NCBI GenBank assembly: GCA_018239665.1
Contig: JAFEGV010000001.1
Location: 24,797 to 88,796, forward strand
Reading direction: 5' to 3'
Length of the DNA stretch: 64,000 nt
Source of the DNA: Verrucomicrobiota bacterium
GTDB taxonomy: Bacteria; Chlamydiota; Chlamydiia; Chlamydiales; Rhabdochlamydiaceae
Shown here: in pieces, positions 25,279 to 30,999 of the stretch
How the letters are laid out: every line of letters begins with the position of its first letter
Numbering within the stretch: position 1 is the first letter of the stretch
Program-made: the position numbers and the translations under genes
The notes under the pieces: model-generated
The model's input: the letters and a program-made list of their open reading frames with translations, nothing else
What the model was told of the DNA's origin: nothing
Databases searched by the model: none

Positions 25279-25697
25279 AGATTTTTCCTTAAATAGTTAA
25301 AGCTGGTTCCTGCATCAAACCCATCGCGCTTGAAATCGAGATGGAAGCCCATTTTTTGATAAAACTCAGGCGCCTGAAAGCTCATCGTCTCGACAAAGGC
25401 AAAGCGGCAGCCGCGCTCCTTTCCATAGTCTAACGCACGCTGCATTAAGGCCTTTCCATATCCTAAGCCGCGATAGGCTTCCTCAACGTAGAGGTATTTG
25501 ATGTGAAGCTGTCCCCAAAAGTATTGGACTACAACACATCCGACCAATGTTTGCCCTTCAAGCATTTCAAAGGCAACGGGATCCTCGGAAAGCCCGTTCA
25601 TCCCGGTCGTTTGGACCGCATGCTTTCCAAACGCTTCGAAAATCCGCTGCTTGAGCTCGGGAGCAAGCGCGCCCTGTTTAATTTCTGTTTTCTTCAT
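25275..25697 (-). CDS. GNAT-family N-acetyltransferase
   Basis: 140 aa with motif A, VEEAYRGLGYGKALMQRAL. There are 4-nt overlaps with both neighbours. Confidence 0.7.
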   Translation of the reverse strand: MKKTEIKQGALAPELKQRIFEAFGKHAVQTTGMNGLSEDPVAFEMLEGQTLVGCVVVQYFWGQLHIKYLYVEEAYRGLGYGKALMQRALDYGKERGCRFAFVETMSFQAPEFYQKMGFHLDFKRDGFDAGTSFNYLRKNL

Positions 25698-26647
25698 AGG
25701 TGTTTTCCCATCGGCATTTCGCCGGGAGCGCTTGGATTGTCCTCGGGGTCGTCCAACGGCATAGGAGTGTAGCGATGACGCTGGTAAAAAGGAAAAGCCT
25801 TCGAACAGGACTCCACATGGATGCTTCGATAGCCTCTGATCTTAAGCCATTTTTCGATTAATTCCAAAAACAGCCCGCCATAGCCATGGCCCCTTTCTTC
25901 CTCTTCGATCTGCATCATCCTCAGCATAGCTCGATGTCCCGGCCATAATTGGACATGCGCGTAACCAACGATCTCCGTGCCGCGATACAACACCAGATGT
26001 TCATGTTCTTTGTGGTTAAACGTCCTCGTATTGGGATCATTGAGAATTCCTCTATCAGACAAATACTCCAGACGCAGCCGCTTGGCAGCATTCCATTCGG
26101 TCTGATCATTGCACTTCAGCATGCGGATCCGGTCAAAGCCTGCTTTTTTGAGCACATCGCGGATAAAGTCCCCCTTCCTGAGCGTGTAGCCGGTAAACGC
26201 ACCGTTCTCCTTTTGATGGGAGGTCTCGTCCTGCAAAAGCCCGATCTTAAGCGCAGCATATTCATCGCGCACAGACGGGTTGTTTCGCAAATAGTCTCGA
26301 AACAGAAGGTTCAGCTCGATCTCGGGATGCCCTTCTTCATAAACATGGAGGTTGACGCCGACATCGCCCCTCTTGCTAAAGCCATAGTGGAGCGGAATGT
26401 TGTACTCGCCTCTGTATTGAAAGCCGATCGACTCGAACTTCCCAATCGTTTGCTGAGGATCTTTGACAACGATGATCATATCGATCTTCGGCTTCGCCGC
26501 AAGCCCCGGCACAGCCGTCGATCCAACATGGTAAACGGCGATCAATTGATCGCCAAGCGCAGCCTTGATTATCGAGCTTTCCAACTCAAACATTGACGGC
26601 CACTGCGGGTTATAGGGAACAACCTCGATGTGTCTCATATTTTTCAT
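25694..26647 (-). CDS. GrpB (UPF0157) domain fused to a GNAT acetyltransferase domain
   Basis: The N-terminal half, IEVVPYNPQWPSMFE...VYHVGSTAVPGLAAKPKIDMIIVV, matches GrpB. The C-terminal half carries a GNAT motif, IEEEERGHGYGGLFLELI. Confidence 0.7.
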   Translation of the reverse strand: MKNMRHIEVVPYNPQWPSMFELESSIIKAALGDQLIAVYHVGSTAVPGLAAKPKIDMIIVVKDPQQTIGKFESIGFQYRGEYNIPLHYGFSKRGDVGVNLHVYEEGHPEIELNLLFRDYLRNNPSVRDEYAALKIGLLQDETSHQKENGAFTGYTLRKGDFIRDVLKKAGFDRIRMLKCNDQTEWNAAKRLRLEYLSDRGILNDPNTRTFNHKEHEHLVLYRGTEIVGYAHVQLWPGHRAMLRMMQIEEEERGHGYGGLFLELIEKWLKIRGYRSIHVESCSKAFPFYQRHRYTPMPLDDPEDNPSAPGEMPMGKHL

Positions 26648-26769: not shown

Positions 26770-26857
26770 TGGCGGAAGAGGTAGGATTCGAACCCACGGT
26801 CGGTTGCCCGACTTCTGTTTTCAAGACAGACGCAATAGGCCACTCTGCCACTCTTCC
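26770..26857 (-). tRNA. tRNA-Ser (anticodon UGA), CCA encoded
   Basis: The minus-strand sequence GGAAGAGTGGCAGAGTGG...TCTGT-CTTGAAA-ACAGA-(long variable arm)-GGGTTCGAATCC-...CTCTTCC-G-CCA has a 7-bp acceptor stem, anticodon loop CU-UGA-AA and a class II variable arm. Confidence 0.9.
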
Positions 26858-26970: not shown

Positions 26971-28002
26971 CTACACTTGCTCGAGGAAGCGGAGGTCGTT
27001 CTCTGTGAACATCCGGATGTCGTTCACGCCGTAGCGGAGCATCGCTGAGCGCTCGATCCCAAGCCCCCATGCAAACCCTGAATAGACCTCAGGATCGATC
27101 CCGCCGTTCTTAAGGACTTCAGGATGGACCATTCCGGCACCGCAGACTTCCAGCCAGCCGGTGAACTTGCAGAGGCGGCAGCCTTTTTGCTGGCATGCTG
27201 TGCAGCCGATATCGACTTCGAGCCCCGGTTCGACGAATGGAAAATAGCTTGGACGGAAACGCATTTGGACCTTTGTCTGGAAGACTTTGCTCCAGAACTC
27301 TTCCATCGTGGCAAAGAGATCGGCAAAGGAAACTCCCTTATCGACATAGAGCCCTTCGATCTGGTGGAAGAAAACGTGGGACCGGGCGCTGATCGTCTCG
27401 TTGCGGTAGACGGTGCCCGGCGCAATGATCCGGATCGGCGGACGGTGGGTCTCCATGACGCGCAATTGGGTGTTCGAAGTGTGGGAGCGGAGGAGCATGT
27501 TAGGCGTGATGTAGAAGGTGTCCTGCATGTCGCGGGCGGGATGGTCGGGGGGAAAGTTCAGGCCTTCATAATTGTAGTAGTCGGAATCGATATCGGGGCC
27601 GTATTGAACGGAAAAGCCCATTCCGGAGAGGATCTCGATCATTTCGTCCATCATGAGAGAGAGGGGATGCTTGCGGCCGAGGTGGCGGCGGCGGCCCGGC
27701 ATGGTCACGTCGATCTTCTCTTGAGCGATCTGCTGCGCCTGTTCGACATCGGCATAGCTTGCTAACGCTTGCTCGCAGAGACGGGCGAACTCTTCTTTGA
27801 GCTCATTGATGACTTTACCGAGGTGTGGGCGGTCTTCGGCCGGAGCTTCGCGCAAATGGAGCATCAGGTCTTGGACAGGTCCTTTTTTCCCAAGGTATTT
27901 TACCTTGAGCTGCTCGACATCTTTGCTGAACTTGACCTGCTTGAGGTCGTCTTGAAACTGGTTGCGTAGTGAAGTGATCCGTTGCTGCACGAAGAACCTC
28001 AA
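26971..28002 (-). CDS. pheS: phenylalanine--tRNA ligase alpha subunit
   Basis: KYLGKKGPV, HPLSLMMDE, FPPDHPARDMQDTFY, LRSHTSNTQ, PGTVYRN, FHQIEG and GFAWGLGIERSAML are all present. The apparent start is TTG; its exact position is uncertain. Confidence 0.9.
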   Translation of the reverse strand: MRFFVQQRITSLRNQFQDDLKQVKFSKDVEQLKVKYLGKKGPVQDLMLHLREAPAEDRPHLGKVINELKEEFARLCEQALASYADVEQAQQIAQEKIDVTMPGRRRHLGRKHPLSLMMDEMIEILSGMGFSVQYGPDIDSDYYNYEGLNFPPDHPARDMQDTFYITPNMLLRSHTSNTQLRVMETHRPPIRIIAPGTVYRNETISARSHVFFHQIEGLYVDKGVSFADLFATMEEFWSKVFQTKVQMRFRPSYFPFVEPGLEVDIGCTACQQKGCRLCKFTGWLEVCGAGMVHPEVLKNGGIDPEVYSGFAWGLGIERSAMLRYGVNDIRMFTENDLRFLEQV

Positions 28003-28702: not shown

Positions 28703-29230
28703 TTAAGCATTCGGTTTTTTCTTGGCTCCAGGAGCTAAAACAACAGACAAATTACGACCCAGCATTTTCGGCGGCGATTCCGGCGTTGCCACATCGCTTA
28801 AGTCATCGCAAAATCTCTGCACCGCTCTTCTACCATACTCAGAGTGGAGCATTTCTCGGCCGCGGAACGTGCAGGTCACACGGACCTTATTGCCTTTGGC
28901 AATAAATTCCCGTGCATGCTTCATCTTGACTTCAATGTCATGCTCATCGGTGTTAGGCTTGATCTTGATCTCCTTCACCTTGACCTGATGCTGCGCTTTC
29001 TTCTGCTCTTTCTCTTTCTTCGTCAACTGATAACGGTACTTGCCGTAATCGATAATCTTACAGACAGGAGGCTCTGCATTGGGGGCGATCTCCACCAAAT
29101 CCAAACCAGCCTGCTCTGCGCGCGTAAGAGCTTCTAGCAGCGTCAACACTCCAACTTGGCCGCCATCTTCGTCGATGACGCGCACTTTCGGTACTCGAAT
29201 CTCGCGATTAATTCTCAAATTCAGAGTCAT
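28703..29230 (-). CDS. infC: translation initiation factor IF-3
   Basis: INREIRVPKVRVIDEDGGQVGVL...AGLDLVEIAPNAEPPVCKIIDYGKYRY...IKIKPNTDEHD...RGREM is canonical IF-3. The start choice is uncertain because IF-3 genes often use atypical starts. Confidence 0.9.
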   Translation of the reverse strand: MTLNLRINREIRVPKVRVIDEDGGQVGVLTLLEALTRAEQAGLDLVEIAPNAEPPVCKIIDYGKYRYQLTKKEKEQKKAQHQVKVKEIKIKPNTDEHDIEVKMKHAREFIAKGNKVRVTCTFRGREMLHSEYGRRAVQRFCDDLSDVATPESPPKMLGRNLSVVLAPGAKKKPNA

Positions 29231-30830
29231 TACTCCCGTTCAGTTCTATGATCATGTTTATAAACTCGTCCACTCCCATTTTCTCATTGTTGGGAGAGTC
29301 AGGGGTCCGATAGCTGATGCTATTGCTCTCTTGCTCCCTATCGCCGATCAATACGGCATAAGGGACATGTTCGCAAAGCGCATGGTGGAGCCGCGTTTTT
29401 AATGGGTCAGCTTTCCTATCATCGATCGTGAACCGGATACCGGCATTTTTCAGCTTTTGCTGAACTGCCTGCACATAATTACCGCTCTCATTAGAGAGCA
29501 CAATGATCCGCAGCTGTTCGGGACTTAGCCAAAATGGCCATCGCCCTTGATACCTTTCAACGCATAACGCCACCAATCGTTCAAGGGAATTAAACGCAGA
29601 CCTCGTGATACACGAGAAACCGCTTTTGACGTCCATTGAACCATCGATCCCAATAAAAGGTCCATCCCACCACCTTCCTAATGCATCAGCCATTCGCAAT
29701 TGAATGCGCGACTGCATTTCCAGCATTGGATCTTGGATGATGAGATGCTCCAGACGCGCTTCCTTCAATACATCTTGAAGGAGGCGGTAGCCTTTCGCCC
29801 CTTTAGAGTCCTTTTTTTGTATTCCAACATTTCCTGTGTATAAAATGATTTGGAACTCAAAACCTAGGATTTTAGGAATTTTGGTGATGAATTGCAAGGA
29901 AGAAATGCACTCCTGAAAAAGTTCTTCGTCATTTATGAACAGATGGGCCCGGTCGGAAATCCAGCCCACACTATCGAAAAGCTCATTTTTTAATTGCTTC
30001 TCATTGAGGCTGCTCAAATATGAGATCTCAGCAATTTTGCAGCTGCCGGCCGGACTGCTCTTTTGCCAAAAAGCGCGGTGGGCCAAAAATATATCAAATC
30101 CCGGCTCCTCATCTTCGCTGACATGCAGGCATGACGGGGTGGTCATCAACTGAAAATTTTGCTTCCGATGCTCGGCGCGCCACCATTGGACTAATGTGTG
30201 CTTGACCGCGTCCGCCTTCGGAAGCCATGCCCAGAGGCCGTCGCCCAAGTCTTCCATCGGCAGAAATAAGCCGCATTCTTCGATCAATCGAAGATGGTCG
30301 CTCTTTGCAAAGGAAGGGGCGGACTTTATAGCTTTTTTTAGGGCCTGCTTATCTTCTTCAAGGAACCCGATAATGCGGACCAGCGTATCCTCTCCAATGC
30401 GGATGGGATAGAACTCCACAAGCTTAAAGGCATAGGAGGGGTCCCACTCGTCCAACAGGGCCTCTTCGCACCAATCGGCAAACTCCCCCATCTGGACCAT
30501 GCTGACCAAGGCCCGGTCAAGGTCCCTTACTTTCTCCGCCAGCACAGGCTGGCCGACATGCTCCAAAAGAGAAGCGGCATTACCGGGCACCATTTCCAAG
30601 ACTTTAATAGGGGCTGCCCGTTTGAGAATTTGGCGCATCCGCTCTTCTAACTGAAAAAGGAACTCCGGCTGAAAGGAAAAGGGGAAAAGAAAATCGTAAA
30701 AAAAGATTTTAGACGTCCCCTGCCCTTGAAAGAGCAAGGTGTCGGGAAAAAGCTCAAGTGCTGCTGCAGCTAATACTTCAGCTGCAGTTTGGCGTGCTGT
30801 GTTCAAGGGATCAAATGGATCTGGTTTCAT
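29208..30830 (-). CDS. threonyl-tRNA synthetase-like protein lacking the TGS domain, with apparently degenerate editing and catalytic motifs
   Basis: 540 aa, colinear by eye with ThrRS from the editing (N2) domain to the anticodon-binding domain (WLSPEQLRIIVLSNESGNYVQAVQQKLKNAGIRF...VPYAVLIGDREQES). The HxxxH editing box reads QTAAE, CRGPH reads CEEAL, and the motif-2 region is shortened. It occupies the thrS position upstream of infC. Confidence 0.7.
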   Translation of the reverse strand: MKPDPFDPLNTARQTAAEVLAAAALELFPDTLLFQGQGTSKIFFYDFLFPFSFQPEFLFQLEERMRQILKRAAPIKVLEMVPGNAASLLEHVGQPVLAEKVRDLDRALVSMVQMGEFADWCEEALLDEWDPSYAFKLVEFYPIRIGEDTLVRIIGFLEEDKQALKKAIKSAPSFAKSDHLRLIEECGLFLPMEDLGDGLWAWLPKADAVKHTLVQWWRAEHRKQNFQLMTTPSCLHVSEDEEPGFDIFLAHRAFWQKSSPAGSCKIAEISYLSSLNEKQLKNELFDSVGWISDRAHLFINDEELFQECISSLQFITKIPKILGFEFQIILYTGNVGIQKKDSKGAKGYRLLQDVLKEARLEHLIIQDPMLEMQSRIQLRMADALGRWWDGPFIGIDGSMDVKSGFSCITRSAFNSLERLVALCVERYQGRWPFWLSPEQLRIIVLSNESGNYVQAVQQKLKNAGIRFTIDDRKADPLKTRLHHALCEHVPYAVLIGDREQESNSISYRTPDSPNNEKMGVDEFINMIIELNGSNDSEFEN

Positions 30831-30837
30831 GAATGGT

Positions 30838-30911
30838 TGGGATATAGCTGACTCGAACAGCTGACCTCCACGATGTCAACGTGGCGCTCTAACCAACTGA
30901 GCTAATACCCC
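30838..30911 (-). tRNA. tRNA-Val (anticodon GAC), CCA not encoded
   Basis: The minus-strand sequence GGGGTAT-TAGCTCAGTTGGTTAGAGC-G-CCACG-TTGACAT-CGTGG-AGGTC-AGCTG-TTCGAGT-CAGCT-ATATCCC-A forms a cloverleaf with one G-U pair in the acceptor stem. Confidence 0.9.
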
Positions 30912-30999
30912 AGATCAATTTTTTAATTTAGATGAACATCTTAGTACAGGCAGGAATTCAGTGCAAGAATTTCTTCATCCGCCTTCGAATAAAACACCC

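Follow-up and report, generated by a model that had tools for sequence, protein, structure and literature searches.

What does a gene in the classical position of thrS encode when its product resembles a threonyl-tRNA synthetase (ThrRS) and has lost the residues on which such an enzyme depends? The question is raised by a 64,000-nucleotide stretch of contig JAFEGV010000001.1 (GenBank assembly GCA_018239665.1, positions 24,797 to 88,796), here called the window, from a member of the Rhabdochlamydiaceae. The original prediction, made from the letters of the window, described an open reading frame (ORF) of 540 aa at 29208..30830 on the minus strand as a degenerate ThrRS paralog in the thrS slot, with infC, rpmI, rplT and pheS downstream on the same strand. 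The ORF is present exactly as described, it does occupy the thrS slot of this gene order, and its loss of catalytic, zinc and editing residues proves to be family-wide. Domain searches, alignment, a predicted fold and substitution rates were used to characterise it. The explanation we favour, with moderate confidence, is that the paralog is a ThrRS-derived pseudo-synthetase with a non-catalytic RNA-binding and/or regulatory role that is coupled to expression of infC, the housekeeping ThrRS being encoded at another locus.

In a search against ThrRS profiles, the check proposed with the original prediction, the sole Pfam match of the paralog was HGTP_anticodon (PF03129; residues 439-529, 29244..29516, minus strand; E 1.8e-16); TGS, tRNA_SAD and tRNA-synt_2b gave no match. 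Against the NCBIfam model for thrS (TIGR00418) the protein scores 187 bits, below the curated cutoff of 383.65 for a functional ThrS. A sequence search of the PDB nevertheless returned ThrRS structures only (1nyq, E 1.5e-27). An AlphaFold2 (AF2) model was built on a 24-sequence family alignment and has a predicted local distance difference test score (pLDDT) of 87.3 and a predicted template-modelling score (pTM) of 0.86. The top Foldseek matches of this model are ThrRS structures, namely 1nyq from S. aureus (E 7e-38, template-modelling score (TM) 0.70), 1qf6 from E. coli and 6vu9; the match spans the whole paralog, with E around 1e-37 and TM 0.67-0.70 for the S. aureus and E. coli enzymes. We are confident that the modelled protein keeps the ThrRS fold of an N2 (editing-domain-like) domain (residues ~10-170, 30321..30803, minus strand), a class II catalytic core (residues ~176-435, 29526..30305, minus strand) and an anticodon-binding domain (ABD), without TGS. 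The missing TGS domain had been noticed from the sequence, and alignment agrees: homology begins at about E. coli residue 66, and TGS is covered in 0 of 177 family members.

Residues were numbered by E. coli ThrRS from NC_000913.3, which was aligned with MAFFT to the window protein, its relatives and canonical controls. The controls were 135 ThrRS, 117 of them chlamydial; the family was represented by 177 cluster representatives. The substitutions that had been read by eye were recovered. In the editing HxxxH box H73 is replaced by Gln and H77 by Glu, and in the CRGPH box H186 is lost while C182 is kept. The segment after motif 1 is shortened. The Zn loop KPMNCPG (E. coli 330-336) is absent, and C334 is gone with it. 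R363 of motif 2 has become Ser and the Zn ligand H511, in IHRAILGS, has become Thr. The alignment also gives D383 replaced by Arg and the loss of Y462, K465, Q479, T482 and Q484. It restores neither the Zn triad (Cys334/His385/His511, of which H385 alone is kept) nor the motif-2 arginine; the motif-1 proline, the H309 equivalent and the motif-3 arginine R520 are retained. The same pattern runs through the family, where C334 is retained in 0%, H511 in 1% and R363 in 8% of members, and R520 in 90% (157/177). None of the 177 representatives keeps the set C334/R363/D383/H385/H511 entire and the editing histidines are lost, whereas all 135 controls keep both the set and these histidines. Retention of editing residues is 4% for H73, 4% for H77 and 13% for H186; most members have lost K156, and 69% have D180. 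The best explanation, which we again hold with moderate confidence overall, is that the paralog would be unable to activate threonine, charge tRNA or edit Ser-tRNA. Two stretches are conserved within the family and absent from canonical ThrRS, EM.P.NAA..H..Q...A in N2 and the core helix ECISSLQFI (residues 307-315); these are candidate new interaction surfaces.

Relatives of the paralog are numerous. A word-indexed search found 33 of 394-607 aa with the same losses. When 1.84 billion representatives were searched exhaustively with a profile, 1082 matched below 1e-30; the best 150 of these (50%-identity representatives) all have E<1e-93 and lengths of 268-612 aa, so none of the best 150 is canonical in length. 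The losses are common to at least 177 cluster representatives, every one of them from Chlamydiota. Among GTDB species genomes about 47 Chlamydiota carry the paralog, and carriers include Rhabdochlamydiaceae, Parachlamydiales, a Simkaniaceae remnant and 'Ca. Acheromyda pituitae' (84% identity). 'Chlamydiales bacterium 38-26' has a less eroded form of 567 aa that still reads LRHSAAQVL, GFYYDF and KERDHR and lacks C334, R363, D383 and H511. The paralog is an ancient and widespread feature of non-Chlamydiaceae Chlamydiota. Genome-scan matches in Lachnospiraceae, Patescibacteria and Desulfuromusa proved to be ordinary active ThrRS caught by a short peptide pattern and served as controls only.

Substitution rates show that the gene is maintained. 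The ratio of non-synonymous to synonymous substitution (dN/dS) between the window paralog and four close relatives is 0.11-0.14, with similar values in each of the three domains, and against a 62%-identical relative it is 0.20. For the same genome pair dN/dS is 0.02 for pheS, 0.035 for nadB, 0.056 for infC and 0.09 for rplT, and dN of the paralog is 3-6x that of these genes. The paralog is constrained at the protein level, and much less so than core housekeeping genes. Because dN/dS is 0.11-0.13 in all three domains, we take it to be a functional gene and not a decaying pseudogene. A synthetase fold is here combined with family-wide catalytic loss and with purifying selection (dN/dS 0.11-0.20), as expected of a pseudo-synthetase.

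C. trachomatis ThrRS and Chlamydia PheS baits were used as probes only (100% identical to database entry P0187 and ~91%, respectively). Some 80 environmental chlamydial ThrRS of ~640 aa were recovered, with TGS, SAD, core and anticodon domains, and every catalytic and editing residue is kept in those that were aligned. Their genes share a neighbourhood (epimerase on the minus strand, thrS, in some cases a ParA-like gene, UPF0137 and a CT_584-like gene) on contigs of up to 2.4 Mb. This locus matches CT581-584 of C. trachomatis and never adjoins infC (loci including L068, L070, L072 and L076). In Chlamydia, Chlamydiifrater and a related lineage canonical thrS and pheS lie on the same chromosome-scale contigs; same-contig pairs were recovered in Chlamydiaceae-like genomes only, which lack the paralog. 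The window itself holds no second ThrRS by tblastn. The known way of binding Zn, threonine or ATP is closed to the paralog, and for this reason we strongly infer that a canonical thrS is present alongside it in this genome. We note that the Zn loop reads PMNCPG[CG]ML[YF] in 95% of environmental chlamydial ThrRS and in 0 of 18 outgroups; the E. coli loop is PMNCPGHVQIF.

The anticodon-binding domain had been called well conserved, and this stands in part. Positions invariant in canonical ThrRS (at least 95% in the 135 controls) were scored as kept when at least 80% of the family retains them. By this measure 6/13 are kept in the ABD against 21/97 in the core and 11/39 in N2, so the ABD is relatively better preserved; pairwise identity within the family is, however, equally low (0.32-0.35) in N2, core and ABD. 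In E. coli ThrRS, R583, E600 and R609 bind the anticodon and the anticodon-like operator loop (PMC6430810). The family keeps E600 in 99% and R609 in 92% of members, whereas R583, which all 135 canonical enzymes share, has been replaced by His or Tyr in 81%. The window protein has the E600 and R609 equivalents and His at the R583 equivalent. This looks like retuned RNA recognition rather than decay. Where the ABD is present, it may, with this altered triad, bind a tRNA-Thr-like or related loop with changed specificity.

The placement of the gene, compared over 44 paralog-bearing loci (among L002-L075), strengthens a link with infC regulation. In all 44, tRNA-Val(GAC) lies directly upstream on the same strand and the ORF fills the whole gap from this tRNA to infC. 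In the window the tRNA-Val(GAC) gene (30834..30912, minus strand; Rfam tRNA, 66.8 bits; also found by ARAGORN) encodes its CCA and ends 3 nt before the ATG of the paralog. The first start codon follows the tRNA by 0-15 nt in 41/44 loci; purine-rich tracts are absent from the spacer, and there is no room in it for a Shine-Dalgarno sequence. At the other end, the stop codon falls within -40 to +15 nt of the conserved N-terminal Arg codon of initiation factor IF3 in 41/44 loci, with ORFs of 325-567 aa, and shorter paralogs that lack the ABD still end on the infC start region. A promoter-like element (TTGC.., 17/18 nt, TA..AT) is found ~25 nt upstream of tRNA-Val in most loci. In the window, a candidate sigma-70-type promoter for a tRNA-Val/paralog transcript was read by eye at 30938..30966 (minus strand), with -35 TTGCAC (30966-30961), a 17-nt spacer and -10 TAAGAT (30943-30938). 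Within the window's clade nucleotide conservation starts at the candidate -35 and continues into the tRNA; a consensus promoter scanner did not list this element. An ARAGORN call inside the paralog coding sequence of one locus only (L003 10341-10436, a 96-nt 'tRNA-Ser(gga)') is probably a false positive.

The junction with infC is equally compact. The window's infC (28703..29230, minus strand; Pfam IF3_N and IF3_C), whose true start codon is uncertain, overlaps the 3' end of the paralog by 23 nt, and a GGAG element resembling a Shine-Dalgarno sequence for infC sits inside the last codons of the paralog (junction 29208..29245, minus strand). With its last 7 codons the paralog covers, in a different frame, the conserved N-terminus of IF3 (L-N-L-R-I-N-R-E-I-R). 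A C-terminal tail, [DNT]SE[LF]xN, was considered as a peptide motif and rejected, as it is this IF3 N-terminus read in the other frame; paralogs whose ORF stops before infC have unrelated tails. Across paralog loci a universally conserved CTG stands 8 nt after GGAG, with AAY YTN MGA ATT AAT next. The annotated ATG or GTG codons of infC lie 0-2 nt from GGAG, and nine loci offer infC no ATG, GTG or TTG at all, which suggests a non-canonical start (CUG or AUU/AUC), as in E. coli. There infC starts at AUU, and IF3 regulates its own synthesis by discriminating against this codon. Downstream follow rpmI (L35; 28484..28687), rplT (L20; 28104..28460) and pheS (26971..28002), and tRNA-Ser(UGA) (26770..26857; Rfam, ARAGORN) closes the cluster, all on the minus strand. 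This tRNA follows pheS in nearly all loci that extend so far, and the unit tRNA-Val-paralog-infC-rpmI-rplT-pheS-tRNA-Ser is conserved in non-Chlamydiaceae Chlamydiota. In the window a nadB-like gene precedes the ThrRS-like ORF.

On the favoured explanation the product would act as a non-catalytic, RNA-binding and/or regulatory dimer. The seven genes from tRNA-Val to tRNA-Ser would form one transcription unit; excision of tRNA-Val would yield a paralog mRNA with an AUG and essentially no leader; and ribosomes that finish the paralog ORF would reach the initiation region of infC and so couple its expression. Several points weigh against this explanation. These three steps are read from geometry only, and infC may not depend on upstream translation because it has its own GGAG element. 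The original prediction had listed regulation of the infC operon among possible roles, beside tRNA chaperoning, and had pointed to E. coli ThrRS, which represses its own mRNA through a tRNA-like operator. The link with infC gains from an ORF that runs from tRNA-Val to the infC start; the operator does not appear, as no tRNA-like operator or known leader RNA was detected and Rfam finds only the two real tRNAs. Nor are there NGU-loop hairpins over the ribosome-binding site as in E. coli thrS: the leader is 3 nt, and the RNA upstream is tRNA-Val(GAC). The ABD, moreover, is missing in 17/177 representatives and in several loci of unrelated clades; a 410-aa member on JAYZJO010000024.1 is one example, and at a Simkaniaceae locus the ORF is only ~325-339 aa. 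The domain has been lost independently in several lineages, and N2 plus core is the lasting module. Binding of an anticodon arm, suggested earlier as what the protein still does, is weakened as a core function by these losses and by the change at R583, E600 and R609 notwithstanding. In Chlamydia, Chlamydiifrater and a related small-genome lineage (mislabelled 'Victivallaceae') no gene lies upstream of infC. With the ABD dispensable (~10%) and the gene absent from Chlamydiaceae-like genomes, any function of the paralog must be accessory. A canonical thrS elsewhere had also been presumed. The separate conserved locus across Chlamydiota bears this out for the phylum; no single genome with both genes was recovered, and no pair of paralog and canonical thrS on one contig or assembly was found by tblastn of the loci, in cluster-member listings, on contigs or by a metagenome scan for the Zn-loop motif. 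All genomes that carry the paralog are metagenome-assembled genomes (MAGs) or come from uncultured organisms.

The lineages without the gene have a 330-410-nt spacer before infC, beside a divergent nusB-murB pair. Their rRNA methylase-infC segment is rearranged, nusB-murB is inverted, and tRNA-Val lies ~2.5 kb upstream on the opposite strand. In Chlamydia the slot is not filled by a 'CT832'-type gene; what lies there, beside nusB, is an intergenic spacer.

The geometry could also be the whole point of the gene. The ORF may be a carrier without any protein function, whose frame is kept open so that ribosomes can pass from the AUG beside the tRNA to the start of infC; it would serve translational coupling or protection of the polycistronic mRNA, and the ThrRS-like sequence would be a slowly eroding relic. 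Such a carrier would explain why the gap is filled end to end whatever the ORF length (325-567 aa, 41/44 loci), why in-frame truncations and repeated ABD losses still end on infC, why dN is 3-6x that of neighbouring genes and why Chlamydiaceae can dispense with the gene. We nonetheless regard it as unlikely. With a dN/dS of 0.13 in each of the three domains the gene is far from evolving neutrally, dozens of positions are at least 80% conserved over 177 very divergent members, among them some specific to the family and absent from canonical ThrRS (EM.P.NAA, ECISSLQFI, R583 to His/Tyr), and the fold is confidently predicted. A spacer alone would not keep 500 aa of structure across phylum-level divergence.

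A second alternative keeps a protein function and places it in a complex. Through its class II dimer interface the paralog could pair with canonical ThrRS, as SLIMP does with mitochondrial SerRS, or, like HisZ with HisG, with a different enzyme. The core retains the motif-1 proline and many structural residues, N2 plus core persists when the ABD is lost, and HisZ and SLIMP are pseudo-synthetase precedents. The paralog is, however, linked to infC and not to thrS, and we give a heterodimer a low probability. The precedents also differ in detail. HisZ is a bacterial paralog of a class IIa synthetase (HisRS) that has lost aminoacylation and remained conserved and functional; it has no anticodon domain, keeps its amino-acid pocket, partners HisG (ATP-phosphoribosyltransferase) and lies among his genes. 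SLIMP is likewise a dead class II paralog beside an active enzyme, a companion presumed for the chlamydial protein, but it is insect mitochondrial, derived from SerRS and heterodimerises with SerRS2.

A more elaborate form of the favoured explanation brings in IF3 itself, which disfavours leaderless and non-canonical initiation; for this reason the geometry could give IF3 feedback on its own operon. We can imagine a tRNA-punctuated circuit in which IF3 throttles the leaderless paralog ORF, and thereby the coupled infC, while the retuned ABD of the paralog senses tRNA or binds the polycistronic RNA; this is speculative and we consider it doubtful. There is a likeness, purely one of geometry, to tRNA punctuation in animal mitochondria: with an AUG 0-15 nt after the tRNA 3' end, tRNA processing would release a (near-)leaderless mRNA. 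To our knowledge, tRNA-punctuated leaderless mRNA is not an established regulatory device in bacteria. If the circuit is real, a remnant of the ancestral thrS would have been recycled as a cis and trans element of IF3 and translation-operon homeostasis in environmental chlamydiae.

Three enzymatic roles fare worse. A remodelled pocket might bind a different ligand and catalyse or sense something new, a role that would fit core residues conserved specifically in the family (W266, C388, S399, S400, Q402 and S513) and the changes D383 to Arg in 35% and K465 to Arg in 39% of members; the ATP-binding motif 2 is, however, degraded and variable across the family and the pocket has no invariant polar constellation, so that we find a neo-enzyme quite improbable. 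That the protein is the organism's only, working ThrRS with an unusual active site would suit the classical thrS position, the label threonyl-tRNA synthetase given by some pipelines and the frequent retention of H385, R520 and the H309 equivalent, and is hardly credible when there is no Zn loop, one Zn ligand in three is left, the motif-2 arginine and all Thr/ATP contacts are lost, the score is below the curated thrS cutoff, NCBI annotation says hypothetical, the ABD is missing in some members and canonical ThrRS is abundant in environmental Chlamydiota. A free-standing trans-editing factor of the AlaX or crenarchaeal ThrRS-ed type that clears Ser-tRNA-Thr, to which the N2 editing-domain fold as the best-conserved region within the family and the 69% retention of D180 might point, can practically be dismissed, as tRNA_SAD finds no match, the window protein has neither an intact HxxxH nor an intact CxxxH, and across the family H73, H77 and H186 survive in only 4%, 4% and 13% of members and K156 is mostly gone.

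Comparison with known systems places the pseudo-synthetase more exactly. With canonical ThrS (TIGR00418; 1QF6, 1NYQ) it shares the fold, the domain order of N2, class II core and HGTP anticodon domain, the ancestral position upstream of infC-rpmI-rplT-pheS, and the motif-1 Pro, motif-3 Arg, E600 and R609. Unlike canonical ThrS it has neither TGS nor Zn loop, and its sites for editing and for Zn, Thr and ATP are destroyed. Its score is half the curated cutoff, its evolution is several-fold faster, and the ABD is optional. In E. coli, ThrRS regulates its own synthesis by binding anticodon-arm mimics in the operator of its mRNA. The paralog resembles this system in a ThrRS-type ABD that keeps 2/3 of the operator-binding residues, in its place at the head of the infC operon and in the tRNA-shaped RNA immediately 5' of its start codon. 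It differs in that this RNA is a real tRNA-Val(GAC) and not a tRNA-Thr mimic, in having His/Tyr for R583, and in that an operator was not detected; not being an enzyme, it can give no feedback from charging. Crenarchaeal split ThrRS (ThrRS-cat/ThrRS-ed) and AlaX also perform part of the ancestral job only, but they keep the catalytic or the editing site and the chlamydial family keeps neither. In the vertebrate ThrRS-4EHP complex a ThrRS scaffold selects mRNA through its ABD and initiates translation (PMC6430810). That protein is an active, moonlighting eukaryotic enzyme and has no evolutionary link to the chlamydial paralog.

We found no description of the family in the open literature or in the supplements of three chlamydial comparative-genomics papers. 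Dead synthetase paralogs as such are already known, and HisZ, SLIMP and the HisRS-like domain of GCN2 have repeatedly proved to be regulators; what is new is one that derives from ThrRS and holds a fixed place between a tRNA and infC throughout a phylum, and we know of no described ThrRS-derived dead paralog in bacteria. Most of this phylum of intracellular bacteria has conserved the gene. Chlamydiota, as far as we know, lack the well-studied leader elements of E. coli, and the placement between tRNA-Val and infC offers a testable model for control of a translation-factor operon in this group. The database entry identical to the window protein is titled 'MAG: hypothetical protein JSR39_00255 [Verrucomicrobia bacterium]'. 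For the family, the NCBI Prokaryotic Genome Annotation Pipeline (PGAP) uses 'hypothetical' or 'His/Gly/Thr/Pro-type tRNA ligase C-terminal domain-containing protein'; other pipelines name members threonyl-tRNA synthetase, a wrong label that can mislead metabolic reconstructions and marker-gene counts. Several host MAGs of the family are themselves mislabelled, as Verrucomicrobia, Acidobacteria or even Chlamydia trachomatis, and among the Chlamydiota genomes in GTDB that carry the gene many have misleading NCBI names of the kind 'Verrucomicrobia bacterium'.

There are hints as to origin. The 16 least-eroded paralogs score 25-50 bits higher against infC-linked ThrRS than against chlamydial ThrRS, a comparison of bit scores and not a phylogeny; the infC-linked set was eight metagenome loci chosen without reference to the paralog. 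A first bit-score comparison was discarded because it was biased by how outgroups had been obtained. The scores hint that the paralog may be the original infC-linked copy and the working enzyme the copy at the CT581-like locus. The paralog would then be a testable model for how the original copy of an essential gene is repurposed after a second copy takes over.

Some further observations were made. An active-looking ThrRS that has the chlamydia-type Zn-loop motif and shares 48-56% identity with chlamydial ThrRS is encoded on eight metagenome contigs (L079, L092, L095, L098, L109, L111, L116 and L135; GC 31-45%); infC lies within ~800 nt of it in L079, L092, L098, L109 and L111 and 3.8-4.8 kb away in L095, L116 and L135. 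Just 3' of tRNA-Ser in the window is a 317-aa ORF (25694-26647, minus strand) that by eye resembles a fusion protein, its N-terminal half being like a GrpB/UPF0157-type nucleotidyltransferase and its C-terminal half like an acetyltransferase. A 694-aa ORF (34367-36451, minus strand) is rich in serine and low in complexity at both termini and has a basic tail; in composition only, it recalls secreted effector-like proteins of intracellular bacteria.

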